Source: Stegostoma tigrinum (taxonomy: Eukaryota). Taken from it: DNA of 64,000 nt. The position numbers and the translations under genes are program-made. Position 1 is the first letter of the stretch; each line of letters starts with the position of its first letter. This document shows positions 1 to 64,000 of the stretch, in pieces. The stretch covers positions 25,671,811 through 25,735,810 of the forward strand of contig NC_081381.1 of assembly GCF_030684315.1 (NCBI RefSeq), in the 5' to 3' direction. The notes beneath the pieces were generated by a model, which saw nothing but the letters and a program-made list of their open reading frames with translations, was not told the DNA's origin and searched no databases.

Positions 1-73
1 TCTACACCTTGTTGCCTCTTATAGGAGATAATAGAATGGTTGATCAAAAATTTGATCAAAGATGTAGGTTTTA

Positions 74-861
74 CCTCCGCCCTCACCCCCATGCCAGGCC
101 TCAAGAAGATTTTCCACATCAAGCAGATGTTCACCTACACATCCCCCAGTGTGGTATACAGCATCCGCTGTACCCGTTGTGGCCTCCTCTACATCGGGGA
201 AACCAAGCAGAGGCTTGGGGACCGCTTTGCAGAACACCTCCGCTCGGTTCACAATAAACAACTGCAACTCCCAGTTGCGAACCATTTCAACTCCCCCTCC
301 CATTCCTTAGACAACATGTCCATCCTGGGCCTCCTGCAGTGCCACAATGATGCCACCCGAAGGTTGCAGGAACAGCAACTCATATTCCGCTTGGGAACCG
401 TGCAGCCCAATGGTATCAATGTGGACTTCACAAGCTTCAAAATCTCCCCTCCCCCCAGTGCATCCCAAAACCAGCCCAGCTCATCCCTGCCTCCCTAACC
501 TGTTCTTCCTCTCACCTATCCCCTCCTCCCACCTCAAGCCGCACCTCCGTTTCCTACCTATTAACCTCATCCCGAGCCCCCCAACCTGTCTGTCCTCCCC
601 AGACTGACTTATCCCCTCCCTACCTCCCCACCTACACTCACCTTTACTGGCTCCATCCCTGCCTCTTTAACTTGTCTGTCTTCTCTCCACGTATCTTCTC
701 CTCTATCCATCTTTGATCCGCCTCCCCCTCCCTATTTATTTCAGAACCCTCTTCCCCTCCCCCATTTCTAATGAAGTGTCTAGGCCCGAAACATCGGCTT
801 TTGTGCTCCTAAAACGCTGCTTGGCCTGCTGTGTTCATCCAGCTGTACAGTTTGTTATCTC
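74..861 (+). mobile_element. 5'-truncated Penelope-like element (family A): GIY-YIG endonuclease end plus pyrimidine-rich 3' region/pLTR
   Basis: ORF 40..498 has VVYSIRCTRCGLLYIGETKQRLGDRFAEH...G.N (GIY-YIG with CxxC). Flanked by direct repeat GGTTTTA (67-73 / 862-868), inside a degraded L2-like fragment. Confidence 0.88.
766..798 (+). ncRNA. Degenerate hammerhead ribozyme motif (family A PLE)
   Basis: CTAATGA-AGTGTCTAGGCCC-GAAACATC; core G5>A relative to the other copies. Confidence 0.5.
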
Positions 862-1513
862 GGTTTTAAGAAGTATCTTTTCAGAGGAGGAAGACAGAGC
901 TTGAGACCTGCACAGTTGAAGACACAGCTGCCAAACGTAAAGGGAAACAAGCTGTGGATGGATTTGAAGCCATAAATGTAGGAACACAGGGATCTTGAAG
1001 GTTACAGGACTTGAAGACTTTAAAATCAAGGTGTTGCTGGACTGAAACTAATGTATATTAGTAAGGAGGGGTCACTATTCTCCTGATCCAGTAAAGGATA
1101 TCTATCAATAGACATTCATTCCTGCCAAAGCTGAGAACAGCTAACTCAGCACAGACTGTAGACCAGGCCTAAAGCACCAAATTCAGTAGATTGAGTTCCC
1201 AATGTTTAGTTAATCCTAGTCTGCACTGAGTTAGCTGAAATGAACAGTGCAGCATTTGGGGGATGACCATTGATCTTGCCTCTGCTACATTGAATCTGGT
1301 CAATAGATTACGTGAATATGATGTAGCCCACAAGTGAATAAAGGCTTGAGTTCTAAGTTTGCAAGTGGCTACTTGAGCAATGTAGCTGGTGCCAATGTAG
1401 CACTGTACCATGAAATAAATGATTTGTGTAGGACAGTAGGAGAAAACTCCAGAACTCCATCCTACCCTAATGCTTTCAGCCTTCTGAGTGGTTTCACAGG
1501 CCCTCTCCATTAC

Positions 1514-4615: not shown

Positions 4616-4685
4616 CTGCAATAGAATTTCTGGGATCACTCACTGTTTCAAAGCATAGATGTAAATAATCAACCACCCTGTCCCA

Positions 4686-6182
4686 GATAACAAAGTGTGA
4701 AGCTGGATGAACACAGCAGGCCAAGCAGCATCTCAGGAGCACAAAAGCTGACGTTTCAGGCCTAGACCGTTCATCAGAAAAGGGGGATGGGGAGAGGGTT
4801 GAAATAAATAGGGAGAGAGGGGGAGGGGGACCGAAGATGGATAGAGGAGAAGATAGGTGGAGAGGAGAATATAGGTGGGGAGGTAGGGAGGGGATAGGTC
4901 AGTCCAGGGAAGACAGACAGGTCAAGGGAGTGGGATGAGGTTAGTAGGAAGGAAATGGAGGTGTGGCTTGAGGTGGGAGGAGGGGATGGGTGAGAGGAAG
5001 AACAGGTTAGGGAGGCGGGGACGAGCTGGGCTGGTTTTGGGATGCAGTGGGGGAGGGGGAGATTTTGAAGCTTGTGAAATCTGCATTGATACCATCGGGC
5101 TGCAGGGTTCCCAAGCGGAATATGAGTTGCTGTTCCTCCAACCTTCGGGTGGCATCATTATGGCACTGCAGGAGGCCCAGGATGGACATGTCATCTGAGG
5201 AATGGGAGGGGGAGTTAAAATGGTTCGCACTGGGAGGTGTTTATTGCGAACCGAGCGGAGGTGTTCTGCAAAGCGGTCCCCAAGACTCCGCTTGGTTTCC
5301 CCAATGTAGACGAAGCCACACCGGGTACAGTGGATACAGTATACCACATTGGCAGATGTGGAGGTGAACCTCTGCTTAATATGGAAAGTCATCTTAGGGT
5401 CTGGGATGGGGGTGAGGGAGGAGGTATGGGGGCAAGTGTAGCACTTCCTGCGGTGGCAGGGGAAGGTGCCAGATATGGTGGGATTGGAGGGGAGTGTGGA
5501 GCAGACAAGGGAGTCGCAGAGAGAGTGGTCTCTCCAGAAGGCAGACAAGGGTGGGGATGGAAAAATGTCTTGGGTGGTGGGGTCGGATTGTAGATGGCGG
5601 AAGTGTCGGAGGATGATGCGTTGTATCCGGAGGTTGGCGGGGTGATATGTGAGGACAAGGGGGATTCTCTTTGGGCGGTTATTGTGGGGGTGGGGTGTGA
5701 GGGATGTGTTGTGGGAAATGCGGGAGACACGGTCAAGGGCGTTCTCGACCACTGCGGGGGGGGGTTGTGGTCCTTGAAGAATGCGGACATCTGGGATGTG
5801 CGGGAGTGGAATGCCTCATCCTGGGAGCAGATGCGGCGGAGGCGAAGGAACTGAGAATAGGGGATGGAATTTTTGCAGGAGGGTGGGGGGAGGTATCTGT
5901 GGGAGTCGGTGGGCTTGAAATGGACATCAGTTTCTAGCTGGTTGCTTGAGATGGAGATGGAGAGGTCCAGGAAGGTGAGGGATGTGTTGGAGATGGCCCA
6001 GTTGAACTTGAGGTTGGGGTGGAAGGTGTTGGTGAAGTAATGAACTGTTCAAGCTCCTCTTGGGAGCAAGAGGCGGCGCCGATACAGTCATCAATGTAAT
6101 GGAGGAAGAGGTGGGGTTTGGGGCCAGTGTAGGTGCGGAAGAGGGACTGTTCCACATAATCTACAAAGAGGCAGGCATAGCC
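4686..6182 (-). mobile_element. Penelope-like element (family A), 5'-truncated, frameshifted RT C-terminus + GIY-YIG + pLTR
   Basis: Minus ORFs contain LFLHYIDDCIG (RT YxDD) and CYTCP...NVVYCIHCTRCGFVYIGETKR; near-identical to 74-861. Confidence 0.9.
4748..4779 (-). ncRNA. Minimal type I hammerhead ribozyme, intact core (family A)
   Basis: Reverse complement TT-CTGATGA-ACGGT-CTAG-GCCT-GAAA-CG-TC-AG: CUGAUGA and GAAA boxes, GUC triplet, ACGU palindrome. Stem II slightly weakened. Confidence 0.7.
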
Positions 6183-6864: not shown

Positions 6865-7472
6865 AGGCCCAATCTTCCCCATACCCAACCCTCTATAAAC
6901 CTCATCTCACCACATACAACCCTGTTCTAGATTTGACTCTCCTCTTTACCCAACTTCATCCTACACTTGACATTTCCATACACCTGCTCCCATTTCCCCA
7001 CCACTTCCAACTGTTTCCTACACATGAGCCATTCACTACACACACAGCCCTGTCCGACACTACTCCTCTCCATATGGTTCAGTATACAAATGGGCTTTGA
7101 AAATGGGGATACCTGTTACTTGCTGAAGATCACAGTCACCTTTCTTGACATGGAAATTAGAAATGACTGTTGCCAAGTAATGCCACAATGTGGGAAAGAT
7201 GACATCGTAGACAGTCCTGATCTTCTTTTCACACAACTACCATACATATGCTTTCCACCATGGGATAATGACTAGTGGGAGAAGGGGAAAACTTGTCCAG
7301 CCCAGGATAAATGTCAATTGTAATACCCTTCCCACTATTCTAGCTTAGTACTACAGAACCTGAGTACTGCTGAAAATAAGTTAGTTTATTGAAGCTTTCT
7401 ATTTTGTACTCATCAGGACAATTCACAAGAATACCAATTCCAGGGGCAAACTAAAATTCACCCTGCCTGAGT

Positions 7473-8016
7473 GATAATGGGAACTGCAGATGCTGAAGAA
7501 TCCAAGATAACAAAGTGTGGAGTTGGATGAACACAGCAGGCCAAGCAGCATCTCAGGAGCACAAAAGCTGACGTTTCGGGCCTAGACCCTTCATCAAGCC
7601 CAATGGTATCAATGTGGACTTCACAAGCTTTAGAATCTCCCCTCCCCCCACTGCATCCCAAAACCAGCCCAGCCTGTCTCTGGTTCCCTAAGCTGTTCTT
7701 CCCCTCACCCATCCCTTCCTCCCACCTCAAGCTGCACCTCCATTTCCTACCTACCACCTCATCCCGCCTCCTTGACCTGTCCATCTTCCCTGGACTGACC
7801 TATCCCCTCCCTACCTCCTTCACCTATACTCTCTGCTCTACCTGTCTTGTTTTCCCTCCTTCTTCGGTCCGCCTCCCCCTCTCTCCCTATTTATTCCAGT
7901 TCCCTCTCCCCATCCCCCTCTCTGATGAAGGGTCTAGGTCCGAAACATCAGCTTTTGTGCTCCTGAGATGCTACTTGGCCTGCTGTGTTCATCCAGCTCC
8001 ACACTTTGTTGTCTCT
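7473..8016. mobile_element. Family A PLE insertion with inverted arms
   Basis: 16-bp TSD TTCACCCTGCCTGAGT (7457-7472 / 8017-8032). Minus arm 7473-7596, plus arm ~7597-8016. Confidence 0.88.
7920..7951 (+). ncRNA. Minimal hammerhead ribozyme (family A), AUC triplet
   Basis: CT-CTGATGA-A-GGGT-CTAG-GTCC-GAAA-CA-TC-AG. Confidence 0.65.
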
Positions 8017-8384
8017 TTCACCCTGCCTGAGTAGAAGTTGCTGATTTTTGGCTCATCTCATCCAGTAGAAATGTTGGCTTTCCCCATCAAATGGTGATGA
8101 ATACAAGTCAGAAAGCTTAGTTTAAAATCTCATGAGGCAATATATTTACTTGAGTCACTGAGTGTGCATTTATAGGAAAGCTAGTTGATCTCCATGGAGA
8201 TACACACAGACAGACAGGATCAACCATAGTCTTCATGTGAAAATGGATACAGAATGGGAGAAATTGGAGTAAGGTGAGCAGATTTAGAATATTCTCAACC
8301 ATGTATGGATTACTTTAAACTGTTCTTGTCTCCATATTACTACAAAGATACAGAGGCATTGAGGGGTGTAAAAAGGATTATTAA

Positions 8385-12340: not shown

Positions 12341-14770
12341 CATTTGTAGGAAATGGAAATTAAACAATTTAGTGATATTCTAAAGATATAATTGTGAGCA
12401 TATTCTCACAGCAATGTTTTTACACTGCTATATTCTAAAGAACAGACTCACTGAAAGAAACACTCAACAAATCTCCAAACAAGTATAAACATCACAAACC
12501 GAAACTACATTCATCTATTTCACACCATTCATACATTGTATTACAACACCAGACATTAAAGTGATTTTAACAAGAGGAGCTGGAGATGTTATCTGGGACT
12601 CGGTTGTGTTCTCCTTACCTTGATTCTGTCTCTCTCTGGCCTTGGGCTGGTATGACAGAAATCTCCGAGCTCTTTTAGAAAGCAGCTGCCCATTGACGTC
12701 AGGGACTCACAAACTTGTGTCCTTCACTGGGAAGTTCCTGGATTATCAGCAGGCTGGGAATTGGGCTGAGATTTGGCCTTCTGTTTTCTTCCTTGTGTAT
12801 TTATTTCAGCACAGTGTTGCTGCAGAAATGATGGTAAATTCAGTTGCTATTTATGAAGAAATTTTTTTTCCAATTCACTTTACTCGTCTTAATCTGTTTT
12901 CCTTCAACTTTTCACCTCTGCCACAGCACTGAAAAGACACTAATCAAAGCCACATTCTTTGTTACAATTACCATAATAACTAGCTACCATCATCCTTCTG
13001 GATCCCTGCACAGCCTTTAACATATGGACCAGTTTGTCCTGATCCCAAGCTTCTCCAATGTAATTGAACTGGATGGGAAAGACCTTGCCTGTCTCCATTA
13101 TTTACCTATTCAGTCATAATCAGAGAATCTCCTGCTAAGATTTCGCTTTCTGCTTCTGTTACTCCTTGAAATCCTGAAGGTTCTCTCCGTGTCTTCCTTC
13201 CTATTTCTCATGCACATACTACCCCTTGACAACTTCACGTGAAGACATGAAGTCAGGTTCCTTTTCACATTTTCACAGGTACACGAACAATGCTCAGTTC
13301 TACCTCTTCAACGCCTGTCTCAAGCCCTTCACTGCCTCTGTATTGTCAGGGTGCATGTCCAACATTCAGGTTTGAATGATTTAATCTCAATTCCTAGGTG
13401 CTTTCTCAGGCTGAAACAGGTAGTTCACATCCTCGATGTCACACTTGATCCTGGGTTGAACTTTCAAATGCATATCTGTTCGATTAGAGAGATCATCTAT
13501 TTCCATAACATCATCTGTCTCTGCACCTGCCTCAACCCATCTTTTGTTGAAATATTCTTTCATGTATTTGTTATCTCTAGCTTTGACTATTCCAATGTTC
13601 CGATGGTCAGTCTCCACATTGTCAACCCTTTAAACAATGTCAGCTCATTCAAAAATCTGTTCCCATAGCCTAAGTTGCATCAAGTCCCCTTTATCCCTTG
13701 TAATTGCTGATCTGTATTGACCCTCAGTCTTCCAATGCCTTAAATAGTGTTCACATCCCCCTCTATGGCATCATCTCTCCTTATCAGTGTCATTCCTCCA
13801 GTCATTCTTACTTTCAATTTATCTTTATTGTGGGCTGTCTGTTTATTGTACTGGTGCTCCCTTCAACATTGTTGTGTAGCTGAACAAGTGAACACTCTCA
13901 CAGAATGTTGCACGGGCTCAGACTGATTGCTGTACTATGTTAGATCCAGGGTTGCTGTGTCACTGCACATCCACACAACCCAATAACCCACCTACACCTC
14001 TGAATTCTTCCGGTTCTGACCTTTTATTCAACTGTTGCTTTATTTTTCCTGCTAGTTGTGGCCAAGCCTTCTGCCATCTAAACCCAAGTTCTGAATTTCG
14101 CCTCATCATTACCATGCTCTCCTTTGAGTTGATCATTGAAATCTACTTTGATGAAGCTTAGTTACTTGTTGTAATTGATACTTCATTAGCTTGATGTGCA
14201 ATTTGTCTGATTACATTTCTGTTTCATCCTACAATGATTTCCTTCATTGAATGTCTGATATAAATATACATTGATAGTGGATCACTGTGGAAACACTGCA
14301 AACTACACATCAAATATTTTGTGCATTTGAGTGTATAAATCAAGGAAATAAGTTTACAGTGTCACAGATATTGGTTAATTGGCAAAGATCTAGAAGCAAT
14401 CTGATTAGAAAGATATGCTCTACGACGACCTTGCTTTCTGCATAACATCAACACATTACCCATGTCACCGCTACAGGGTCATCTGTCGCCGAAATCACAA
14501 GTTGACCAGGATCAAAATTGATCCACAAGAACTTCTTCTTGCTAATGAATCAGAGGAAAAGTCTCTGCTGGTTGGAGTCATAGCTGAGTTGAACAAGTCA
14601 TATATATATTGTTACAACAACAGGTCAATTAAGAACTCTGCAGCAAGTATCTCAACACCTCCCCCCATTGCTTGCCCAACATAAACAAAGCACAAATCAG
14701 AAGTCTCATGGAATACTCTCCACTCATCTGAATGGATGCAGCTGGAGCAACACTCAGATGTTTAACACCA

Positions 14771-14993
14771 GAGATAATGGGAACTGCAGATGCTGGAGAA
14801 TCCAAGATAACAACGTGTGAAGCTGGATGAACACAGCAGGCAAAGCAGCATCTCAGGAGGCACAAAAGCTGACGTTTCGGGCCTAGACTCTTCATCATCC
14901 TCTCTGATGAAGGGTCTGGGCCCGAAACATCAGCTTTTGTGCTCCTGAGATGCTGCTGGGCCTGCTGCATTCATCCAGCTTCACACTTTGTTA
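14771..14993. mobile_element. Non-coding palindromic family A mini-element with two opposed hammerhead motifs
   Basis: 19-bp TSD ACTCAGATGTTTAACACCA (14752-14770 / 14994-15012). Minus arm to 14897, plus arm from ~14899. Confidence 0.88.
14902..14933 (+). ncRNA. Minimal hammerhead ribozyme (family A), intact core
   Basis: CT-CTGATGA-A-GGGT-CTGG-GCCC-GAAA-CA-TC-AG. Confidence 0.65.
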
Positions 14994-15719
14994 ACTCAGA
15001 TGTTTAACACCATCCTGGATAAAGTAGTTCACTTGATTCATACCCCATCCACCATGATTAATATTCAGCCCCTTCACTATTGACACACAGTGGGACCCAC
15101 TACAGGTTGGACAGCATTAACTTAGCAAGACTCCTTGGACTGCTTCTGAAACTGCAACATGCTTGAAACAATGGCAGCTGTTGCATGGGATCATGACTAC
15201 CTGCAACTTCAAGCCATGCAATATATTTTGACTTAGAACTACATTGCTGTTTTTTCATTGTCTCTATGTAAAGGTCCTGGAACTCCCTACTTAACAGCTT
15301 GAATGTGTGTTTTCACCAAATGGACTGTGGTGGATCAAGAAGGCAGCTCATTGCCACCCTCTCAAAGATGCATTCCATGAACAAATTACAATGAATAATA
15401 ATTTTAAAAAGAGAATTGGATAAATACTTGAATTGGAGAAACATTGCATAACTGTGGGTAAAGAACATGGAGTGACATCAATGGAATACTGTTGCCAAAA
15501 ACTGGCAATACATGAAATACATGAAAGGTCATAAATTCTTTCTCTCTTCACAAATGCTGCCAAATTTGATCTGTTTTCAACTTTCAGTTCTTCATCCACT
15601 GTAAGTTTGTGCTTTTGTAGAGTCAGAGATGGGCCAAATGACCTCCTGTTGCCTTATTACTTTCTTTGATCCTGGTGCCTGTTTCTTTAAAGGCAGCCTT
15701 ATCAATAGATAACGCAAAG

Positions 15720-18021: not shown

Positions 18022-19539
18022 GTAAGTTTATCTGGAATTTTCTCAGTCTTTTCAATAAATTAAAACTGACTGGAGCGTAACGCACCTTTGTACACAACAG
18101 ACTGAGTTGGCAATAGTCCTGGCCACAATAGGTACAGAAGGTGTACTAGACATGGGGCATCCTTTGGTGTGCTTTGGCTGTAGTTGTGGTTATATGCTAA
18201 TGCTGTGGTGTAGTGTGACTCCCACAACACACAATCTGTATGATACTGCTTTCTGCTTAGGCTCCTGTGAATGGTTGGAAAGTATCTGAGCGTTGAAATA
18301 ACTGTTTTAATTCATGTGCCTTTGTCACTATATAGGGACCATTCAACAATGTGCATTCCAATTGTCCACATGTTCCTGTGCCAGTTTGACTCTGGTCCCA
18401 CCTTCCAAATGAAAAGAGGCACCTGTTTTTCTTCACTCTTGCCTGTTTTTAGGATATGTAGATGAACAGATCCTGGGCGTTGTAGAATCAGAATTGTTCT
18501 CCATGCTGTGATAGTTGTATATCTATTCAAGGGATGTGGGCTTTGCTAGCAGCATCTATTGTCTGACTGTAATTGCTTTTAGAAGATAGATTGAAAAAGA
18601 TGGAAAACATCCTTCTGGAACCCCTGGTAGTAAGTATGAAGATGCACTCACTGCTGTTGGGTAGGAGTTTCAGGATTATGATACTGTGGCTGATGAAGGA
18701 GCATTAATGTTTTTAAGATCACAGTCGTGATGTCATGTGGCTTGTTTGGGACTATTGAATGTGTTGCAGTATTCCTGAAAATGTGTGGAGTTTTAGGAGT
18801 TGGTGTCTAAGAAGCCTTCACAAAGTTGTGCACTGCGGTCAAAACATTGATTCTAATCTTACAAATGGTGTTTTTATTGTGAAGTGAGTGGCTTACTAGA
18901 CCATGTCAGGGGGTATTTAAGGATAAAGCATATTGCTTTAGTACATGCAGAAGCAGACCAGGTAAGCATGGCAGAATTCTTTTCCCTGAAGTAGTGTAGT
19001 AGATGGATTTTTTTTTACAACAATCTGTTTGTATTGTGGTGACCATTCATGATACTAACCTTTACTGCAGGTTTTTTCCACAGCTGATTTTAAATTTCCC
19101 ATCTGCCATGATGGAGTTTGAATCCATGTTTGGATCATTGGTGCAGGCCTCTGGATTTCTAGTCTAGTAATGTATTCAGTACGTTGACATATCTGTTACC
19201 TGTTGTGTTATGCTCCTTAAGAACAATAACTTTGGTTACTCTTATGGAGACATCCAGGTGTGTTACACGGGAACCATTAAGCCCAAGGGGGTGTTTGGGG
19301 TTTGAGCATAAGCTTGGTCCAGCCATTTGTGAAATGGAGAGTCCGGGAGAGTGTGAAACCCATGCAGATCCACCACCAATGCTCAGTAGCAACAGTGTGA
19401 ACTATCTCTGTAAGATGTACACTCACCCACCCCTCTGGCCAAGCCATCTATTGCCGATCCTTCAGTGTCATTGGGTCAAAATCCTGGAATTCCCACACTA
19501 ATGGCATTGTGGGTCAACCCACAGAGGATAGATTGCGAG

Positions 19540-19633
19540 CTAACAAGGTGTGGAGCTGGATGAACACAGCAGACCAAGTAGCATCTGAGGAGCAGGAAAG
19601 CTGATGTTTCGGGCCTAGATCCTTCTTCAGAAA
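19540..19633 (-). mobile_element. Short family A mini-element with hammerhead (19601-19632)
   Basis: Reverse complement TTT-CTGAAGA-A-GGAT-CTAG-GCCC-GAAA-CA-TC-AG followed by the family A 3' sequence; inserted in a LINE 3' fragment. Confidence 0.75.
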
Positions 19634-21709
19634 CGGGCCAGTTCAGAAATGGCAGCAGTTCAAGAAGGCAGCTCACCAATGCCGCCTTTAGGACTACTGG
19701 GGGTGGGCAATAAATGCTGTCCAATCTGTGATGCCTAGATGCCACAAATTTAATAAAAATGAAAGGGAGAGGTTTGTAGGGTGATTGTGTGAAGTGATTA
19801 AACAGGAAAATGAGACAGTAAATTTTAAGGCACTGGATTAGTGAGGGTGTGGGTCAATGAATTGTCTATGATCAATTCTGACTAGTTTTGGAAGATCGGA
19901 AGTTTGCTACACAAGCATTTGATTCATCGGCTCTGGAGGGACATGAGGGTACAATGTTTAACGTAGATCTGTATGACTGACAAAGCTGTGGATATGGACA
20001 GTATTGCCTTGTGACTGAGAGAATTGGATTGAATGCATAACTTGAAGAATGAGATGTCAAAATTGTAAACAGCTTGTTTTGACAAGGAAAAGCCTGATCA
20101 GGGGTGGTGTCGGCGGTATGATTGCAGTATTTGCGTTAGGACTGTAGACAATGGCTTTAGTCTTCCCAGAGGTTATTTGGGGAAAGTTGTAGGTTATCCA
20201 AGATTAGATTTTGGATATGATTTGCAATACTGAGTCAGTAGAACTTTTGAAATGGATCTTTATATTAGCAGTGCACGTATGGAGACTGGCCCTGTCACTT
20301 TCAAAGTCACCAAGAGGCCATATATAGATGAGCAGGGCTACAGACAAATCTTGGAAGTTCCCATGATGATCGTGAGCTAGAAAGAGATGTTGGTGACTTT
20401 GTTGGCATGAGTGGAGTTGAGTGCAGGCTGGATAGATATTGGGAGGTTTGATGGTTAGAGTCCAAAGCTGCAGAGAATAATGCATTGCAGTTGTTGAATG
20501 GTTTTTTAATTTCCTTTTTCTAAAATCTAAATTGCTGCTTTCATGGAAACTAGTTTGGAGAGTTTCAAAGAGTGAGTTGTGACAAAGTTGGCTGTCAGTC
20601 CTGGAAGTCGGCAGGGTGGTTGAGATGGGCATTGTTTGTTGCCTGTTTTTGGTAATAAAGTAGTATTCATCTGCAGCCTAAATGTGGCTTTTAGGGTGGT
20701 TTTTGTCAGCATAGCACAAAGATGATCTGTTGCAGCTTGATGTGATCCTTTAGATTCCTTTTATAGTTGTGTATGCACATTAGCTTTTTGCATGCTGAGC
20801 TATACATATCTTAGATCTGCACTAGTAGCATTAGTAATGTCCAGAGTGAATGCGTTTTGGCCAACTTTGAGATCACCTTGATCGAGTCAAGCGTGATGTT
20901 CTTCCCCCCTCCCTTGTGTGAACTGAAACAGGGATATCCAATCGACCCCTGTTAGCTTGGGCTGTTCAGTGACTTTTTAATGGACTGTGCCCTGTCCCAC
21001 GTGGTACTTGATTTTAGGAAGATAAATCCTGATTCACCTTTTCTCTTCCATATTGGTTGAATCACTGCTCATTTGAAAGAGGACCACCAATGGAATTTTC
21101 AGACTTTGCTGCTCAGTACTACTTCGGAGTGTGTCTATTCACTGCTGGTGTTGCTTGAGAGAAATGTTTGGAAATAATAGTTGCTGAGTGATTTTTTTTT
21201 TTGGCTTCACAAACTCTGTTATAGAATATTGTGCTTGACGTTGATTTGGTGAAAATAAAACGGGTCATTTGGAGTTCCCTTCCTGTGACATTTCATGATA
21301 GTTGAATCCTGTTTCTGACATCAGGGTTTGAACTTCACGAATTTTTGTTTAAGATGAGGAAGAATAGTGTAAGGGAATGTACTTGAGGTGGATGTTTTCT
21401 GCTCACTATCTAAACCAGTTTGATTAATTGTGATCATCTCTTCTGTGGTTCAGAAGATCAGGATTTATCTTCCTAATGGTTTGTGGCTAATGAGATATCA
21501 CCTCTGGGCTTGTAGGTAAACCATTATTGTGACCAGCAGGTGCTGAGGGTTTGAGAAACAAGTGGCAGTATTCAGAATTTGTAAACCAGCTGAATTAAAG
21601 CGAAAGGATTGCTGAAAATCTAATTGGGTGCTATGATGAGAGAGTTGAATGTACAGCAGAAGCAACCTCCAAGTTCCAGTCTAATCAAACTTGAGTGGTA
21701 CAGTATACA

Positions 21710-22044
21710 AGATAACAAAGTGTAGAGCTGGATGAACACGGCAGGCCAAGCAACATCTCAGGAGCACAAAAGCTGACGTTTTGGGCCTAGACCCTTCATC
21801 AGAGAGGGGGATGGGGAGAGGGTTTTGAAATAAATAGGGAGAGACGGGGAGGCAGACCAAAGATGGAGAGAAAAGAAGGATAGGTAGATAGAAGATAGGC
21901 CTCCCCCCTCTCCCTATTTATTCCAGTTCTGTCTCCCCACCCCACGAAACATCAGCTTTTGTGCTCCTGAGATGCTGCTTGGCCTGCTGTGTTCATCCAG
22001 CTCCACGCTTTGGATTCTCCAGCATCTGCAGTTCCCATTATCAC
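21710..22044. mobile_element. Family A PLE insertion with inverted arms
   Basis: 14-bp TSD TGGTACAGTATACA (21696-21709 / 22045-22058). Minus-arm hammerhead 21773-21804 has G12>A; the plus arm lacks the CUGAUGA box. Confidence 0.85.
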
Positions 22045-23229
22045 TGGTACAGTATACATTTGGCTGCCTAACATTTCACTGGACAGTGCTGCTCAGGAAG
22101 CCAAATTGAATGTTTTGAAAATTTTACTTTCAAGATGAAATTGTTTTTCTGAATGAAAAGTAACCCGCTAATACAATACCCATGGCCCGTGTGGATGACT
22201 GCTGCTCAGGATTGCTGCTTCTGTTCCGGCACCTAGTCTGCCAAACGCATTGCAGCTTTTAAGAAGCTTAACTGAATAGTAGTTTAACTGCAGCAAACCA
22301 CATGCAGGTCAAGACAGTTCAAGGTGCTAGAATTTCTTGTGATACTCTAAGCAGTCACACTGGAAAGTGAAGTTTATGCTGGAGGTCAGCTGCAGTCTTC
22401 CAAAGCAAGGCAGGCTTGCTGCTGGTCTTTAATGTTCTTCATTCACCACTCTCACACGGGCTATTGACTTGGGTGTTGCCATCTGTATTTCACTTGCGTT
22501 GCAAGATTTGGAACCCAGTTTTGGAATCTAGCTGTTTCATGATCCAAGGGGACGCAGCTCTTTATGTTTATACAGTGCCTTTAAGATAAAGCCATTTCAC
22601 AGAAAGAAACAAGTATTCCTCCCATTCCATCAAATTTTGAGTGACAGCTCTGCTTAATGTGACCTAGACTGTCTGGATGTAACACAGACTTGAATCTTTG
22701 TCCATGGTGTGTGGCAGTAATAGTGTGCCAGTACTCGATATCACAACATGGTTAGGCACAGTGTCAGTATCTCTTCCAGATCTGTTGAGTTGGGTATTTA
22801 CACTGAATTTTCTAACATTGTCTCAGCATATTTCGCAGTTCTAAATTTGACACAATAAAATAGTAAATTTTTAATCACAACTCTGACCTTCATTTCATTT
22901 ATCTTGAAGACTCTGTGATCGTACAAGTTCTAGTATTTTCTCCAGTTCACACGCGTAGAATGTTAGCCAGCTATTAGCCACCCTTGCCTGATTAATCAGG
23001 GCCAATCCCATTCAGGTTTTGCTTGACTTCCAAGTTGCCTGTTTTCTATTAAGATTCTTTGGGTAGCAATTGAGAGCAAGAATCTAGCAGTTATTTTCCC
23101 TCGCTCCATTAGTGTCCACTTATAAACCAGGCTGTGCGCTTCCTGATTTGGTGGTAATGTTAATACAAAATGGTACGTTACTGGCCCAACTACGTGTATA
23201 TTATCAAAAACAAATGAAGCACTTATTAA

Positions 23230-29800: not shown

Positions 29801-30242
29801 GGCCCATTTTAAATGTGCTGACTGTTTGAAGGATGAGCTAATGACATAGTTATAATGTCACTGAAGTGGAAATCCAGGTGCCTAGACTAATTCTCTGGGG
29901 ATGTTGTTTCATACTTTACTGAAGCAGCTTGTGGAATTTAAAGTCAATTAACAAGTAAATGTGAAATTAAAAGGCTCTTCTGAGCAATGGCAAACATGAA
30001 GGTATCATCAATAATTGGGAATTACATGCCTGGTACATATTACCCTTGTTTTTGTTTATTCATTCACTGGATGAGGGTGTTTCTGGCTAGGGGATGGGCA
30101 ATACATGCTGCCAATTGTCCAGAAGTTAGTTATGAGTCAACCATACTACTGTGGGTCTGGAGTCACATGTAGGCCATACCAGGTAAGGTTGGTAGTTTCC
30201 TTCCCTAAAGGACATTAGTGAACCAGATGGGTTTCCCACAAT

Positions 30243-30312
30243 ATAACGAAGTGTGAAGCTGGATGAACACAGCAGGCCAAGCAGCATTTCAGGCCTAGAC
30301 CCTTCTTCAGAG
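30243..30312 (-). mobile_element. Internally deleted family A mini-element inside a SINE
   Basis: Family A sequence ending at CTGAAGA; imperfect duplicated flank AGATGG(G/A)TTTCCC..AATA. Confidence 0.65.
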
Positions 30313-31200
30313 ATGGATTTCCCCAATAATTGACAATGGATTCAGTTATCGTTGGACTCCTAATTCCAGATATTCACTGAATTCAAGCCTGGGTCCCCAG
30401 AACATTATCTGGATCAACAGTCCAGTGATAACACCACTAAGCCATCATCTCCATGGTCAGGCTTCAACTAATTAACAGCCCTTTCTCATCCAGTATAAAT
30501 TATGCCATTGAAATTTGGTAATATAATTCTGTCCTGATGAATACAAGGTGAAAAAATTTGGATAGGATGTTCGAAGAGTGTGGTGTAGTGGTAATGTTGC
30601 TGTGATAACAATCCAGAGGCTTAGATTAATGTGTTGGGGAATGGGTACAAACTTTCCCATGAGAGCTGGGTGAATTTAAGTTCTAATGAAAGCTTGTCCC
30701 TCTAATGAAAAACCATGAAACTATCAACTGTCATCAAAACTTATTCGGTTTACTATATGCTTTTAGGGAAGGAAATCTACCGTCCTTACCTAGTCCAACC
30801 CGTAGTTGACTTCAATTGAAGTCAATGTGGTTAATTCTTAACTGCATTCTGAAATGGCCTAGCAAGCAACTTGCTTCAGGGGTAATTCAGGATTGACAAC
30901 ACGTGCTGTCTGTACCAGTGGCGCTTGGTGCTCCCCTCCTATGAAAGAATATGAAGCTGCTGAAGGTCCACTGCAACCCTCGGATGCAGAGATTTAGCAT
31001 TAATTGCCACATGCTCAAATGAGTACAGTATAAAGTTGACAAGTTGCTACTTACAGTACCAAGTACAAAGATACCCAGATATACATTAAATGCAAATTCT
31101 TGGGGGGGGTGGGGGGAGAAATTGAACTAATAGCTTTGTTATGAATCTAACCCACTTAGCATGAAGGTAGTACCACAGCACAATAGAGGCTGTTGACAAT

Positions 31201-41904: not shown

Positions 41905-43880
41905 CGAAAACAGAAATTGCTGGGAAAACTCAGTAGATTTGGCAGCGTTTGTGCAGAGTTAACGTTTTTGGGTCCAGTGACCTTTCTTCAGAACTGATTA
42001 TAGCTAGGAAAACGTTGCTCAAGATGTGTTGAATGCAAGGGGGAGGAGTAAATGATAGGTGGGTGTTGGACCCCAGAGAAAGAGAAGAATAGTTGGACAA
42101 AGGAATGCGTAAAAATCAGCCTGGGGGGACTCAACAACTGTTAATTAGAACCATTTGTAGCTGACATTGGGAATGGTTGTGGTAGCAGCCCATGTGATGA
42201 CAAGGCCTGGTATATGAGGAATTGTGGTAAGGACATAGGAGAAGGTGCTCAGGACCTAAAATTATTGAACTTGATACTGAGTCCTGAATACTGCAGGATC
42301 CCCAAGTGAAAAATGAGATGCTGTTCTTCCGGCTTGTGCTGAGCTTTGATGGAGCGCTGCAGTAAGCCGGAGACAGAAATTGCCAGGGAACGCAGTCATG
42401 TCTTGATGTGGCAGGCTACCAGAAGCCCAGGGTCATTTCTCTGTAGAGAGTGTAGGTGGTCTGCAAAGTGATTACCCAGTCTGTGTTTTGTCTCCTCAAT
42501 GTAGAGGAGACTGCATCGTGGGCAATGAACATCGTCGACTAGATTGAGTGAAGTGCAGGTAAATTGCTGCTTCATCTGGAGGATGTGTCTGGGACTTGCG
42601 ACAGGAGGGAGGAATTAAGTGGGCAGGTGTTGCACCTTCTGCAATTACATGGGAAGTGGCTGTGGACAGGTATTGGAAGTGTTGGAGCAATGGACCACAG
42701 TGTCCCAGCAGGATAAGTTCCTGCAGAATGCTGACGAGGGCAAGGAAGGGAATTTGTTCCTGGTGGTGGCATCTTGCTGTAGGTGGCAGAAATGGTGACG
42801 AATGATCCTTTGAATGTGGATGGCGGGAGGGGTGGTAAGTGAGGACCCGGGGATCCTATTGATGTTGTCGGAGAGAAGAGAGGGATGGGGGCCAAAGTAC
42901 AGGAGATGGGTCAGACCGGTTAAGGGTGCTATCAACCACAATGTTGGGAAAGAAGGTGGATATTTTGGAAGCTCCTTGTAGAAGTTGGCACCGTCAGAAC
43001 AGATGTGATGGAGATGTAGGAACTGGGAGAACGGAACAGAGTCTTTACAGGAAGCAGTTTGTGAGGATGTATAGTCAAGGTAACTTTGGGAGTCAGTGGG
43101 TTTGTTGTGGTTATTGGTAGCTAGCCTCTCCCCAGAAACAGAAATGGAGATGTGGAGGAAGGGAATGGAGAGTCAGAAATGGACCAGGTGGAAATTGGGA
43201 GCGAAACAGATACTTTTCTGATTTGGGATGAGAGGGAAGCAATGCTGATGATGTCATTGATGTAGTGGAGAAAGAGTTATAAGTGGGGACCGGAGTAAGA
43301 CTAGAATAAGGGATGCTCCACGTAACTCACAAACAGACTGGCGTAACTGGGGCCTATGTGGGTACCCATGGCCACCCGTCTGACCTGAAAAAAAATGAGA
43401 GGAATTAAAGAAGTTGTTCAAAGTGAGGACGAGCTTGGTCAGGTAGAGGAGGATGGGGCGGTTTAGGCCTTTTCTTGCGGGAAGAAGTGGAGAGCCCTGA
43501 GACCTGACGGGGGATAGATGTGTGAAGGAATTGCATGCCCATAGTAAAGAGGAAGTGGCTGGAGCCTGCAAACTGGAAATTCTGAAACTGATGGAAATCA
43601 TCAGAAGAATCATGGATGCAAGTGGGAAGTAACTGGACAAGGGGAGAAAGCATTGAGTTTAGGTAGGAAGAGATGAATCCTGCAGTGCAGAAGCAGGCAG
43701 AAACGATGGGTTTTCCCAAACAGGTTTGTGGATTTTGAGAAGGAAATAGAAGTGGGCGATGTGGGGTTGGAGGACTACCGCATGGTGGCAGTGGGATATC
43801 ACCAGATGATACGGGGCTATTGACATTGGACAATAGACTTGTGTTCCATCGTGGGGTTGCGGACCAGGAGGAGATGGGAG
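41905..43880 (-). mobile_element. Older Penelope-like element (family B), degraded RT + GIY-YIG
   Basis: Minus ORFs KPIVSAC...LFTMGMQFLHTSIP and FPCNCRRCNTCP; terminal hammerhead-like motif 41957-41995. Confidence 0.8.
41957..41995 (-). ncRNA. Hammerhead motif (family B), G12 mutated
   Basis: Reverse complement AGTT-CTGAAGA-AAGGTC-ACTG-GACCC-AAAAA-CG-TT-AACT. Confidence 0.55.
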
Positions 43881-43899: not shown

Positions 43900-44900
43900 G
43901 AGCCTCTGCTACTGTTTCTGCCACCTCCAGTGGGAAGACACGCATTCCCCTTTCCTCCCATGTAGGTCTTCTGCATAGTCCGTTCCTCCTTCACTCCCAG
44001 CACCATCCTATACAATCCAAGAAGCTGTAGCACCTGCCTGTTTACTTCCTCCCTCATCACCATCCAAAGCTCAGGTACCTTCCAGATGAAACAGCAATTT
44101 ACCTTCATGTCACATGAAGGGTCTAGGCCCGAAACGTCCGCCTTCCTGCTCCTTTGATGCTGCTTGCCCTGCTGTGTTCATCCAGCTCTACACCTTGTTT
44201 ATCTCAGATTCTCCAGCATCTGCAGTTCCTATTATCTCTGTCACTCAGTCTAATCTACTGTGTTAGCTGCCCATAATGTGGTCTCCTGTACATGGGGTGG
44301 GGGGGACAAAACACAGACCAGTGACCACTTTGCAGAACACCTGTGTTCTGTCTGCAAAAATGACACTGAGCTTTGTGTTGCCTGCCACTTCAGCACACTA
44401 CCACGTTCCCTGGCCAACATCGCTGTTTTGAGCTTGCTGCAGTGCTCCAGTGAAGCTACATGCAAGCTAAAAGAACAGCGTCTCATTTTTCACTTGGGGA
44501 TCATGCAGTCTTCAGGACTCAATATCAGGTTCAATAATTTTAGGTCCTGAGCACTCTCTCCCATGTCCTCGGCCCAACCCCCCAGCCACACACTAGGCCT
44601 TGTCATCACATGGGTTGCTACCACAGCCGTCCCATTATCAGCTACAAATGATCCTAATCAACAGCTGGTGATTCCCCCAGGCTGATCTTTACACATTCGA
44701 GTGTCCAACTATTGCCCTATCTCTCTGAGCTCTCTCCATCTATTGTTTACTCTTCCTCGTCTGCCCCTCCCCCCCAATTCAGTAGAAAGGTCACGAGACC
44801 CAAAATGTTAACTCTGCTTACTCTCCACAGATGCTGCCGGACCTGCTAAGTTCTCCCAGCAACTTCTATTTTTTGTTTCCAATTTTCAGCATTCGCAGTC
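43900..44900 (+). mobile_element. Inverted partner copy of the family B PLE (GIY-YIG end + pLTR)
   Basis: ORF 44260: DHFAEHLCSV...VACHF...LKEQRLIFHLG...GLNIRFNNFRS; reverse complement of 41905-42650. Confidence 0.78.
44114..44238 (+). mobile_element. 125-bp family A mini-element nested in the family B PLE
   Basis: ATGAAGGGTCTAGGCCCGAAACGTC...TTCCTATTATCTC flanked by TGTCAC (44108-44113 / 44239-44244). Confidence 0.8.
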
Positions 44901-47900
44901 ATTTTTTTCCGCCTGCATGTGTCAGCTGAACTATTAGAGGACCTAAGTTAAACACTAGTTTAAGCATCAGCTACTCAGTTAATAGGTTCCTGCAATTGCC
45001 TTTGAGATCTTCTTTGGATATGACGTGGCAAGGTGCCCTGTCTGTTTAGTTGACACGCAAATTCTGGCTCCAGACAAACAAAAAGTCGCAACGCTTGCAA
45101 GAAGGTGTGAGGTTCTTGTTGCTTCTCCAGTTGTACTGAGAGCGAGGTGTGAAACTCACTGAGTCTGTTTAGTCTTTTTTTTCACTCCTAGATTGGAAGA
45201 TGTGCAATTAGCAACTCCCAAACCATACCCCTCAACCTCTAATAAGGATTTACTATTTCCTGAGCCAGCTACAAGCAGGAACACTTTAGTGCTGTCTGAA
45301 GTGCTGTGACAAATTCAGATTTGACTCCCAAATTTAACCTCCAGCACTATCTTTCTTAAAGCAGTGAGGCCTTCCTGGGTGGTCTTGGGACCCTTGTTTT
45401 ATACGGTTGTTATTCATGTGTGAAGCTGTGCAGTCTATTTGACCAGACGGGCATCGGACCTCCACACAACATCCTTTCACCTATATTTGTCAGGCAGGGT
45501 AGTCAGTGCGAGATGGAATCGGGCTGTTAATCTTTTCACCCTCATTTCTCTTCTCCTGCCATCACTCCATATCACACGGGCCTTAAAGCTGGTTGCAGTA
45601 ATCCTCCAATCTGTGGCCGAGATCAGCTAACCCAGAACACGTGAGAAAATTGAGACTGATGTTAATTTTGCCCTGTGTAACCCAGCTCTTTAAAACCTTA
45701 AATGATAGCATTTGTGGCTCAGTTGTTCACATTCTTGCCCCGTGTCAGATAGTTGTGCTTTTAAGTCCCCGTTCTAAAGGCTTGAGAAGAAAATCTAGCC
45801 TGATGCTGCAGTATCTGAGAGAGTGCTGCATCACCAGAAATCCTCCTCTTAAAGCTGCCTTTAAACTGAAGTTGTATCTGTCCTCTTGGTGAGATGGAGA
45901 AGACGCACTATTTGAAGATGAATGGGGGAGTTTTCTCTGGTGTCCTGGTTAATATCTACTCCCTGACCACCACCACTAGGACAGATATCCAGACATTATC
46001 ATGTTATTGCAGGCTTGTGGCATACAATTAGCTGCTGCATTTCCTGCAACACGACTGCTGATATTAGTGCCAGCTGTCCCTTGATTCTAGGATGTGTTGC
46101 TGCCACGGATCTTTGAGTGAGCAGTCCCAGTTTCCATCTGCAGGCTTTTTTTAATGTGTGAGCTAGGCTGATACATTGGGTGGTGGCTGGCATCTGGAGC
46201 ATAAGATGTACTACTTTTTTACCATAGTAAGTTGCTGAGGGACATAGTAGTTTATATGTAGCACTTGAGGGCTGGAGGAAGCCATTCAGCCCTTTGACCC
46301 TGCACAGCCATGCAGTAAGATCATGGTTGATCTGTTTATGGTCTCAACTACACTTTCCTGTCTGTCCCTAACCTTCTATCTAACTCAGCCTTTAATAACT
46401 TTAAGAACCAGCCGTCAGTGCCTTTTGGGGAAAGTTTCCATGGACTACCATCCCTTTGAAAGAGACAAAAAACTCTTATTCTTAAACACCTCAACCAGCC
46501 AGTGTTGACCAGCCTACTTTGAGTTTAGACTGAAAGCCTGGGAATAAATGCCTCCTGATGCATTATCCTCAGCAACGCCTCAATTGATCAAGAGTTCACT
46601 TGCTGATCAGTCAGCACGCATTTTCCCATGCAATATAAGTGTTGTTCCTGTGAAGTTTGTATTCTTGTGAGTCTGTCCTGATGAGCACAAGGCAAACATC
46701 TCAGCTTGTCCAAAGGGAAGACCATGATGTAGTGATAATGTCACATGATTAGGAATCCAGAATCCCAGGCTAATGCTCTGGGGACATTGGTTTAAATGCC
46801 GACTGTGGCAACTGGTCAAATTTAATTTCAGTGACCGCTAGTCTCAGTAATGGTGACTGTAAAACTGTCATTGATTGTTGCAGAAACCCAACTGACTCTC
46901 TGATGTTCTTTGGGACAGGAAGCCAACCGTCCTTACTTGGTCTGGCCTACATGTGATACCAGGCGCACAGCAATGAGAATCACTCTGAGGAATGGACAAT
47001 AGTCACTGCCTACATCTCATGAAACAATTTCAGTTTTTAGTGTTTCTTTTACCACAGTATTTTTATCCTGTGTCTCTTAGTTCTAGTTACCTTAACAAGA
47101 GGGTACATTCTCATTATCTTTACCCTGCCAAGTCCTCTCAGGATCTTGTATATTTCAACTAAATTACCTCTCATTCTTCTGAACTCCAATGAGTACAAGT
47201 CCAACCTACATTTTCTTCGTAAGATGCACTCTTCAACCCAGGAATGAGTCAACTGAACCTTGTTTAAACTACACAAAAACAAAGTTGCTGGAAAAGCTCA
47301 GCATGTTTAGATCCGTTGAGCTTTTCCAGCAACTTTGCTTTTGTTCCTGATTTACAGCATCCGCAGTTCTTTTGGTTTTCTTCTTTAAACTGCTTTGATG
47401 ATTCGGCAATTATCGGTATTTTTAATCAGGTTGTTCAGATGTATGATGACCCACCTCTGGAGCAGATGGGACTTGAATCCAGGATCCTGTCTCAAAGGTA
47501 GAGAAATATGATATTCTTGTGATTCTGCCCTGATGGCAGAAGAGCTGTTATTCTTTCATATAAGTAGACCAGACTTGTACACACTGCTCCAGATGTGGCC
47601 TCGCTGAGGCATTGTATTGCTGCAGTACAGCTTTCCCTATCCATCAGAAGTGAGACTCCTGACTGAGTGTTTGCTGACGCAAACTGGTTTGTTGTCTGTC
47701 AAGGTCTTGACCTTTTAAATTCTCAAAAAAGGACTGGATAAATGCTGGATGGTTTGGAAAAATAAATTACAGGGCTTTTGGGGGGAAAAAGTAGTAAAGT
47801 CAAATTATCTTAGTGGCTTTACCAAAGAACTGGTAAACCCATGATGGACCATCTAGCCTCCTTTGCAAAATCAGTGTATAATTCATCCTCCTTTCAAAGC

Positions 47901-48949: not shown

Positions 48950-49059
48950 ATAATAAAGTGTGAAGCTGGATGAACACAGCAGGCCAAGCAGCATCTCAGG
49001 AGCACAAAAGCTGACCTTTCGGGCCTAGACCCCCCAGCATCTGCAGTTCCCATTATCTC
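48950..49059. mobile_element. 110-bp family A mini-element: inverted arm plus short tail in opposite orientation
   Basis: TSD TGGTTTTT(A/G)TTCTGT (48935-48949 / 49060-49074). Confidence 0.8.
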
Positions 49060-53654: not shown

Positions 53655-53752
53655 GGATAACAAGGTGTAGAGCTCAATGTACACAGCAGGCCAAGCAGCA
53701 TCAGGGGAGCTGGAAGGTTGATGTTTTGGGCCTAGACCCTCCTTCAGAAAAT
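53655..53752 (-). mobile_element. Degenerate family A mini-element
   Basis: Homologous to 19540-19633; starts at TTTCTGAAGG. Confidence 0.65.
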
Positions 53753-61955: not shown

Positions 61956-62204
61956 TAATTGTTTGATAATAATTTTAAAAAAAACCTTTTTTTTCCCCTT
62001 TTTGCTTGTATTCAGTTGTGTGTTGGTTTGCTTACATTTTTTGTGTAGCCTGTGCCATTTGAACAGGACAAAGGGAAGCCTTACCTTATTAGAAATAACT
62101 CCAATACCTTTCAATCCCACTTTCTGAGCCTTGAGATCTGTTTGCATTCCCAAATCCAATTTTTTAGTACTGGACTCATGAAACAAAATAGTTGACTGGT
62201 AATG

Positions 62205-62331
62205 GAGATAATGGGAACTGCAGATGCTGGAGAATCCAAGATAATAAAGTGTGAAGCTGGATGAACACAGCAGGCCAAGCAGCATCTCAAGAGCACAAAA
62301 GCTGATGTTTCGGGCCTAGACCCTTCATTAG
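62205..62331 (-). mobile_element. 127-bp family A mini-element starting at the hammerhead core
   Basis: TSD AGTTG(A/C)CTGGTAATG (62190-62204 / 62332-62346); reverse complement begins CTAATGAAGGGTCTAGGCCCGAAACATCAG. Confidence 0.85.
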
Positions 62332-64000
62332 AGTTGCCTGGTAATGTTTTGTCCCATGTGATGCGAGCATCCCTTGTGGTTCTGGCACAGCGAAGTGTTC
62401 ACTAAATACTGCTAATGATGGCTGCTAGTAGGACTGACCTTTCACAATATTGATGAGGTGTGTTATGTGAAGACACTGCATTCTGTTTGGAATGTTTTAA
62501 TTGGAATGTCAGGTATCCTTTGGGTGTAAATGTTAGCTAATGTCTTGCTGGCAGCAGTGGGACCAGCACTAACTCTAAAGCTAAACACTGAGAATTACAA
62601 TGTATTGATTTGCCTTAATGTGTTTTGTGTTTACATGGTGGACGTGTGACCCACCTCCCTGCACACACGCTCTTGGAATGGCAGAATGACATACCATAGA
62701 ATAGGTGGTTACACCATTGTACTTGTGCTGACTTATCCCCCCCCAACCCCCTTGGGTTGGAATCTTTTCCCCTTCTGGTATTTATCCAATTCACTTACTG
62801 ATGTCGCCATTGAATCTCCTGTGGGCACCCTTTCAGGCAGAGCACTCGGATTACAATTTTGCTGAGCTAAACAAAAAAAAAGTCTCATGTTGCCACTGGT
62901 TCTTTTGTCAAGTACCTTAAATGTGTCTCCTCTAGACAGTCTCTGCTGCCACTGGGAGCAGTACTTATTTAAGTTGTTGCATATCTCCCTATCCTTCACT
63001 CCACACATGCAACCATACCTTCGCCTGTCCCGGCCCCATACTGTGACACTACCTCCCAAAGGAAATTGGCAAAATTTAAAGTATTTGGCAAAAACATCAT
63101 TGGTGGCATGAGAGAGTCATTTTTACATGGTGTCCCAGATAATGAGAACTTACTGCCTGAAGAAATAGTAAAAGTAGTAGATTCAGTAACTACTTCCATT
63201 AGAGTGGGCCTAATTGGAAAGCTGTTCCAAGGAGCTAGCACAGGTACAGTGGGCTGAAAGGCAACATTTTGTGTTGCACCATTGTTTCCTAAACCCTTTA
63301 AATGTCATTTTCTTTCTCTTTATTCTTTCTGGGAAGGGAGTGTTACTGGCAGGACCAGCCCTTGTTTTCTCTTGTGCTGGGTGGCTTCCTAGGCCATTTT
63401 GGAGGGTAGTTAAGGGTCACCCACATTCTGTAGGTCTGCAATCACATATAAAGGCAGACTAGGTGAGGACAGCAGATTTCCTTTCCTGGAAGGCATTTAT
63501 GAACCACATGGGTTTTACAACAGTTGTTGATATCGTCATTTAATTGTTATGTAAACATATCACTGTTTATCTTATGGATTTATTCACCAAATTTGAATTC
63601 CACCATTTCCTTTTGTGGGATTTGAATCCGAGTTCCTGGAATATTAGCCTAACCCTTTGGACTGCTGCTTTACATCTAAGATCCCTAATGGGGAACAGTG
63701 CCTGAATTGGATTCTAGAATATTGTCTCCTCAAAAGGCAGTGAATGCTGAGGGCCAGCTGGAGCTTTCAGGTTGAGATTATTAGGTTTGTTGGGTTAGAG
63801 TAATAAGGGCTAATGGATTTGAGACAATTTCAGCTTGATCTGGTGGAACAATCATTCAGGCTTGGCGCTGGAAAAGAAAGCTCCTGATCCTCTGCTGGGG
63901 TGATGGCAGGGAGGCTACAAGACTCAGCATCATTCAGGTTAAGGAAAGGTGCGGGTGTATTTGTCAGGATTCTTCTTCCTGACTGCTATCCCATAAACAA

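Follow-up and report, generated by a model that had tools for sequence, protein, structure and literature searches.

Scattered through a 64-kb stretch of Stegostoma tigrinum DNA, which is the window analysed here, are short inserts that carry a hammerhead ribozyme motif and begin within a few nucleotides of the ribozyme's 5' edge. The locus on which this study focuses, an insert of this kind with a duplicated target on either side, raises the question of what fixes this end. We conclude that the focal insert represents one end, hammerhead plus tail, of a Penelope-like element (PLE) of the Neptune type. The short copies as a class, here called stubs, are copies of the end module of such an autonomous element. 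They are likely to arise where its reverse transcriptase initiates within the element's RNA, about 95 or 130 nt from the 5' end, and then runs off; this end is a predicted Pol II start about 4 nt before the hammerhead core.

Short copies and hammerhead motif in the window

Positions within the element are counted from C3 of the hammerhead, which is 0; negative values lie upstream and positive values downstream. The focal insert (62205-62331, minus strand) is 127 bp long, runs from C3 to the long-tail end at +126 and carries the core changes G5A and G16.2A. The 15-bp copies of its target duplication, upstream at 62332-62346 and downstream at 62190-62204 (both minus strand), differ at one position, and because the final 2 nt of the upstream copy are also element positions -2 and -1, the 5' end of the insert is placed at 0 to -2.

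The ribozyme was recognised by eye from the published description of the minimal type I hammerhead ribozymes (HHRs) of metazoan PLEs, which, in the accessible text of PMC4209133, comprise CUGANGA, an extra nucleotide before stem II, G10.1-C11.1, GAAA and a palindromic 15.2-16.2. Read in this way, the focal motif occupies 62303-62331 (minus strand), and its predicted cut falls between 62304 and 62303, that is, at +27/+28. The core boxes, stem II, the palindromic 15.2-16.2 and the UH are intact in the tandem copy L209 and in most young copies; the focal core is mutated. Helix I has 2 bp in the main family, short of the 4-5 bp expected, and 4 bp in a second family. An Rfam scan returned no hammerhead family match, and MFE folding gave no extra stability relative to shuffled sequences (z from -0.27 to 0.5). 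A type III-like arrangement, with the cut upstream of the core, was rejected, since the upstream sequence offers no stem III partner.

Among the other short copies, the solo insert at 44114-44238 (plus strand) extends from +3 to the long tail between the halves of a 6-bp duplication (44108-44113 and 44239-44244). Two further arms belong to head-to-head pairs. The long-tail arm at 14771-14897 (minus strand, starting at +1) faces a short-tail partner at 14899-14997 (plus strand, starting at -5), and a duplication of 15-18 bp (14753-14770 and 14995-15012) encloses the whole of 14771-14997. Likewise, a short arm with a long tail at 7473-7596 (minus strand, starting at +1) stands against a longer, 5'-truncated arm at 7597-8014 (plus strand) that comprises the endonuclease end, a CT-rich 3' untranslated region (UTR), the ribozyme and a short tail; here, a 16-bp duplication (7457-7472 and 8017-8032) encloses the whole of 7473-8014. 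As the duplications surround entire pairs, the arms at 7596 and 14897 are halves of one insertion each. Short-tail inserts of an older subfamily lie at 19530-19633 (minus strand, starting at -3) and 53656-53751 (minus strand, starting at about -4), and a short-tail insert with an internal deletion lies at 30239-30313 (minus strand, starting at about -3). All seven starts named in an earlier note on this DNA are therefore present, between -4 and +3. The copies at 62331 and 44114 have target duplications of their own, and those at 7596 and 14897 lie within duplications that enclose their pairs; at 19633 and 53751 no convincing duplication was found, and that at 30313 is imperfect.

Four arms in the window that the note did not list run through the edge (C3 at 768, 4777, 7922 and 21802). 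Two more head-to-head pairs were seen, one with arms that extend past the edge to about -92 and -51 (21702-22046, with a 14-bp duplication) and one that joins an arm from +8 to a tail-only arm (48950-49059). Several observations stand apart from these. At 19633-19660 (minus strand), a 10-nt same-strand repeat of the stub's own 5' end precedes the stub, although such repeats are not enriched genome-wide. Copies of older hammerhead-bearing PLE-like families occur at 41991 (minus strand), 44777 (plus), 58526 (plus), 27767 (minus) and 11080 (minus); that at 41991 is a member of the second family and has TCAGTT before its core. A perfect-looking hairpin at 47277-47340 is formed by inverted halves of an older related repeat and gave sub-threshold miRNA matches in Rfam.

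Parent element and the genome-wide breakpoint step

Long copies in the window continue upstream of the ribozyme into the CT-rich UTR and then into a GIY-YIG domain that has a CxxxxCxxC linker in front of it. One truncated parent copy (72-866, plus strand) retains a GIY-YIG remnant (PF01541, E = 2.7e-5, above the cut-off) in a match that spans window positions 70-426; another (4681-5600, minus strand) has the linker before GIY-YIG and extends upstream of 5600. Reverse transcriptase (RT) sequence was found further upstream of GIY-YIG in long copies, in the order RT and then endonuclease (EN) in L048, L091 and L144. At the tandem junction of L209, the UTR, ribozyme and tail are followed by an ATG at +166 and an open stretch of 919 codons, which matches RVT_1 weakly (E = 1.9e-5, below the Pfam cut-off). 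The ribozyme-tail module thus stands at the 3' end of the element and, in tandems, also at its 5' end; two short arms of the random sample described below continue into the 5' UTR and ORF start of the L209 type. The parent unit is approximately 3.6 kb. Pieced together from several loci, it has the single ORF of an EN+ PLE, with RT and, at its C terminus, a GIY-YIG domain, and it has the architecture of these elements: partial tandems that form pLTRs, an inverted truncated copy and a one-sided tail of 30-40 bp. The CxxxxCxxC of the translations fits CX2-5CxxC, given in the available portion of PMC8557442 as the Neptune-clade motif before the endonuclease, and it is this linker that suggests a Neptune-type parent. 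The view that PLE machinery makes the short copies is supported.

To place the 5' ends genome-wide, 140 stretches of 10 kb at regular genome positions (1.4 Mb) were searched for arms by means of an anchor at +44 to +91, downstream of the ribozyme. This gave 319 arms, of which 4 were cut by the end of a stretch and excluded, leaving 315. Ninety-five start at -8 to 0, 28 at -249 to -9, 87 at or beyond -250, 64 at +1 to +27 and 41 at or after +28. Uniform starts over -249 to +43 were rejected (95/209, p~1e-84, a value to be read with the proviso that paired arms are not independent; unpaired arms alone gave 40 versus 24), and 60 of the 140 stretches contribute edge arms. By exact matching, the mode of the starts is -4 (28/76). 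Positions -8 to -1 hardly vary among the long copies of either subfamily, and in the edge class the sequence resembles flank upstream of about -6; subfamily divergence was therefore ruled out as the cause of the step. The clustering reported in the earlier note is therefore confirmed genome-wide, as is its statement that cleavage does not define the ends, since there is no pile-up at the predicted cut (5/315 starts at +26 to +31). A 3' splice site at the step was also rejected, because it lacks an AG (the nearest is at -24/-23) and the stubs have no common upstream exon. Extrapolated to the 3.2-Gb genome, the sample corresponds to some 700,000 arms, of which about 200,000 belong to the edge class.

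The 3' ends form two peaks, at +91-93 (short tail) and +126-127 (long tail), and their distribution among pairs is far from random. Of 59 head-to-head pairs, 53 join one long to one short tail (p = 9e-11), with four pairs of two long and two of two short tails. A target duplication was found in 40/59 pairs, compared with 1% of shuffled flanks, and only 6/64 unpaired short arms passed the same threshold. Pair partners were never of different subfamilies (0/39 labelled pairs) and had more rare variants in common than expected (16 versus 4.1). This similarity fits one source RNA for both arms; shared age or gene conversion would fit too.

The large number of short copies, their two fixed lengths and the duplications flanking some of them are what might be expected of a separate nonautonomous family, with an RNA of ~130 nt or a circular RNA mobilised in trans, as the earlier note had proposed in describing them as retrozyme- or SINE-like. 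The ratio of short to long copies also differs between subfamilies (37:69 versus 39:12) and varies among variants, and PLE-derived retrozymes are described in what could be seen of 10.64898/2026.07.22.740005. The copies themselves argue strongly against this proposal. Within subfamilies, the short copies have no private variants (best p values of 0.025 and 0.005 among several hundred tests), and stubs are present in every variant class tested. Short and long copies interleave at random on the subfamily trees, with 30 label changes versus 31.2 after shuffling (106 copies) and 10 versus 10.9 (51 copies), where the subfamily label itself changes twice; because the trees are built on 92 nt, this result applies to all but a recent, small short-only lineage, which could escape detection. 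Of the two outcomes that the earlier note had named beforehand as refuting its proposal, interleaving was observed and a uniform distribution of breakpoints was not. In the younger subfamily, edge copies show slightly more divergence (0.060) than long copies do (0.040). A SINE-like family would have a lineage and diagnostic variants of its own, and retrozymes would be head-to-tail units each with an HHR; the stubs are dispersed monomers or inverted pairs with no peak at the cleavage site. A TATA-like box described below falls outside the stub, so that stubs would be dead ends that do not propagate. From the absence of private variants and the interleaving with long copies, we conclude that the stubs are not a separate SINE or retrozyme, an origin that we regard as highly improbable.

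Other derivatives of the main family were encountered. Two head-to-tail arrays, one of at least seven 313-nt units (about -74 to +248; L228-L234, G000:C1:165409508-165411531) and one of 336-nt units (-70 to +266; L218/L220, G000:C27:49708974-49709473), retain the TATA-like box and the ribozyme as well as the tail and ORF start, and are, unlike the stubs, true non-LTR-retrozyme-like derivatives. Internally deleted elements of 450-600 bp (L216, L221, L222, L224, L225, L238 and L239) join ORF-start positions +257 to +339 to 3' UTR positions -234 to -64 at variable junctions and look nonautonomous. At four loci (L043:2015, minus strand; L240; L223; L106:938, plus strand), a stub whose start lies at -4 to -1 is fused in the same orientation directly behind internal ORF sequence, which may reflect a template jump or insertion into an older copy.

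Origin of the fixed 5' end

The promoter motifs were read against the usual spacing of TATA boxes from the start site and the Inr and TCT consensus sequences. In 75/88 long arms, TATTTA(T) begins at -34/-35, which is 30-31 nt before -4. The window example, TATTTAT at 7888-7894 (plus strand), lies 34 nt before C3 and 30 nt before the breakpoint mode; it is missing from short copies and would act as a promoter element. Around -4, the younger subfamily has what we take to be a TCT-like initiator and the older an Inr-like one. The second PLE family, which is distant, contributed 52 cores, 9 long and 43 short. Its long cores have TATAAA at -33 in 5/9 and at -30 in 1/9, and AGTT at -4 to -1 in 9/9, mostly within TCAGTT; its 43 short cores fall to background similarity upstream of -6. 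In this family, -4 is also the end of the 4-bp helix I, so promoter and fold are not separable there. Of 58 copies selected by the ORF N terminus, from which the query's own locus had been dropped, 6 begin at -3 to -1, 13 at -250 to -9, 25 at 0 to +287 and 14 further upstream; the 6 edge starts speak for an RNA that begins near the edge.

An extra G at a junction is the mark of a copied cap. Where the base before -4 to -6 junctions was not explained by an inverted arm, it was G in 15/34 cases against 23% expected (p = 0.005). By set, the count was 11/23 in the random sample and 4/11 at other loci (p = 0.19); unpaired arms alone gave 8/21 (p = 0.07), and other breakpoints 10/70. With power limited by the 1.4-Mb random sample, this modest excess is suggestive, not decisive. 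Re-copied 5' terminal bases, looked for as a sign of a free RNA end, were not enriched at edge junctions (3/95 versus 4/133).

From the parentage, the breakpoint step, the two 3' end classes, the composition of the pairs, the duplications, the lack of a separate lineage and the spaced motifs, we infer the following course of events. A TATA-like box in the upstream tandem copy's 3' UTR would drive a capped RNA from -6 to -4, in which the predicted order is ribozyme, tail, ATG (+166) and ORF. The endonuclease would make a staggered cut in the target, and the two DNA ends would then be primed at different sites, one at +93 and the other at +127, probably with a single RNA as template. An RNA that begins at about -4 carries the tail and downstream sequence at its 5' end; initiation on this 5' copy of the tail would bring the enzyme to the end of the RNA after ~97 or ~131 nt, where it would run off, whereas initiation on the 3' copy would give long, variably truncated copies. 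The two cDNA ends would then be joined to each other, giving a pair, or one to the target, giving a solo stub, with a few nucleotides trimmed. The ribozyme would be a passenger at the stub-forming step. We consider it probable that RT initiates internally, close to the 5' end of the RNA, at both cut strands of the DNA and then runs off.

Some observations count against run-off. The edge ends are dispersed over -8 to 0, some of them at -5/-6 above chance, so either the RNA starts at more than one base or its start is at -6. All 6 edge-starting copies among the 58 selected by the ORF N terminus came from the older query; the youngest subfamily gave 0/29, and nonetheless has edge stubs (10 versus 34 long). 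Two near-full-length copies (L217 and L219) begin at about -20 to -24, adjoining the AG that ends the pyrimidine tract; this position may be an additional start or a splice acceptor.

The earlier note had also suggested a programmed RT stop or template switch at the ribozyme fold, and the step does fall at the motif's edge. An enzyme copying from the 3' tail could halt where the fold has its 5' edge or as it enters the first C-run; core and cleavage-site strand can form one hairpin that ends at C3 (in the MFE fold, with z about 0), in the second family helix I reaches exactly to -4, and copies that keep the ORF start would halt at the edge too. Structural blocks to RT are, however, expected on the side met first, the 3' side, and the step is on the far, 5' side of the fold. 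It is sharp even though helix I has just 2 bp in the main family, later C-runs almost never stop RT (28 starts in 241 nt), and re-copied 5' fragments are no commoner at edge junctions. A stop predicts neither the TATA spacing nor the G excess, and the promoter motifs of two families point to the same base. A stop at the fold is thus less likely than run-off, and we think it improbable. Somewhat less probable still is an end set by a nuclease, whether by the element's endonuclease or a host enzyme that cuts cDNA or DNA at the G-rich strand's border, or by RNase processing of a tandem precursor RNA at position -4. It is true that the C/G-rich tract starts exactly at -4/-5, and PAc, a Poseidon element from Anolis, cuts its own ORF-pLTR junction with a preference for ATT, according to the accessible text of PMC11167929, which could be compared with ATTT at -4 in the older subfamily; the bases at -4 to -1 nevertheless vary among groups (CTCT, TTTT, ATTT, AGTT), a C-run is absent from this border in the second family, and a cut would yield no cap-like G and require no TATA box.

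Recombination between the end modules of full-length copies, leaving solo pLTRs, and pair formation by self-priming on an antisense template have both been proposed, as seen in the part of PMC3846280 available to us. Near-full-length copies that start at the edge exist, from which recombination could leave a stub with a duplication, but the start at -4 would still need a cause, and precursors look rare, with long arms of the random sample sharing at most 2,760 nt of the ~3.6-kb unit. For self-priming, the antisense AATAAA at -27 to -33 would end an antisense RNA further upstream, and the second family lacks AATAAA. We regard both routes as very unlikely.

Relation to known elements and implications

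As described in the accessible parts of PMC3846280 and PMC8557442, EN+ PLE insertions carry an inverted 5'-truncated pLTR, a one-sided tail of 30-40 bp and a target duplication. The element studied here resembles them in its head-to-head arms, the 34-nt tail on one arm, the duplications, the putative TATA and Inr motifs of the pLTR and the solo pLTRs. It differs in that truncation is described there as variable, and solos are ascribed to recombination or deletion, whereas about 30% of the arms found here stop within a 9-nt window at the predicted start.

The closest biochemical parallel is PAc. In vitro, as reported in the main text of PMC11167929, two internal RT start sites bound the tail, both cut strands are extended, RNA downstream of the start sites is required, 5'-shortened RNA gives shorter products and uncleaved RNA is used. 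The element studied here would share the two internal starts bounding the tail, the extension of both strands and the dispensability of ribozyme cleavage. Unlike PAc, which belongs to the Poseidon clade and whose ORF starts inside the ribozyme, it is Neptune-type, has its ATG at +166 and would preserve in the genome a record of a single start site for each strand. The accessible text of PMC11167929 describes neither an RNA 5' end nor a class of run-off stubs; Fig. S2 of that paper shows genomic ends and may bear on the 5' endpoint.

In being mostly single dispersed motifs, some of them close together on opposite strands, the hammerheads match those described for metazoan PLEs in the portion of PMC4209133 available. 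Cleavage and circularisation are proposed there; here, no ends lie at the cleavage site, and helix I has 2 bp (4 bp in the second family). Like the non-LTR retrozymes of 10.64898/2026.07.22.740005, as far as its accessible text goes, the stubs are noncoding, derived from PLE pLTRs and equipped with a type I HHR, but retrozymes are defined by head-to-tail repeats, and the stubs are monomers or inverted pairs with no lineage of their own. For the proposed promoter, supplied by the 3' UTR of an upstream copy, tandem promotion of the HeT-A type offers an analogy only (PMC2377424, in part). In Drosophila virilis Penelope, by contrast, transcription begins within the upstream pLTR at an internal promoter that lacks a TATA box (PMC2377424), and the intron of that element terminates at helix I (PMC2377424 and PMC4209133); to the extent that these sources could be seen, both features count against the TATA-driven start proposed here.

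Retroviral minus-strand strong-stop DNA is a short cDNA that is primed near the RNA 5' end and runs off. The stub cDNAs may be strong-stop-like in this sense; there is no tRNA primer or LTR here, and the target DNA would both prime and retain the short cDNA. A fuller picture may be put forward tentatively, in which twin-primed PLE retrotransposition takes place on one capped RNA, the stubs are trapped intermediates and the ribozyme acts on the 5' end of the mRNA. A protein dimer would prime both ends of the staggered cut, using two fixed positions close to the 5' end of the RNA; the stubs, at about 200,000 arms by extrapolation, would map the transcription start and the cap, and the ribozyme, beginning at transcript +1, would act on the mRNA 5' end and not on the RT template.

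In the literature covered, chiefly the main text of freely accessible papers, neither a 5' endpoint at a PLE start site nor a class of run-off stubs was described. The pattern is real and strong, the element is of a known kind with a published architecture, and the fixed endpoint would be a new, testable mechanistic detail. Only one PLE has been reconstituted in vitro. If the mechanism proposed here is true, the start site of each PLE family would be readable from genome sequence alone, a single event would draw on both RT start sites, one for each DNA strand, with uncleaved RNA as the template, and most single minimal hammerheads in such genomes would be dead by-products rather than a mobile ribozyme family.
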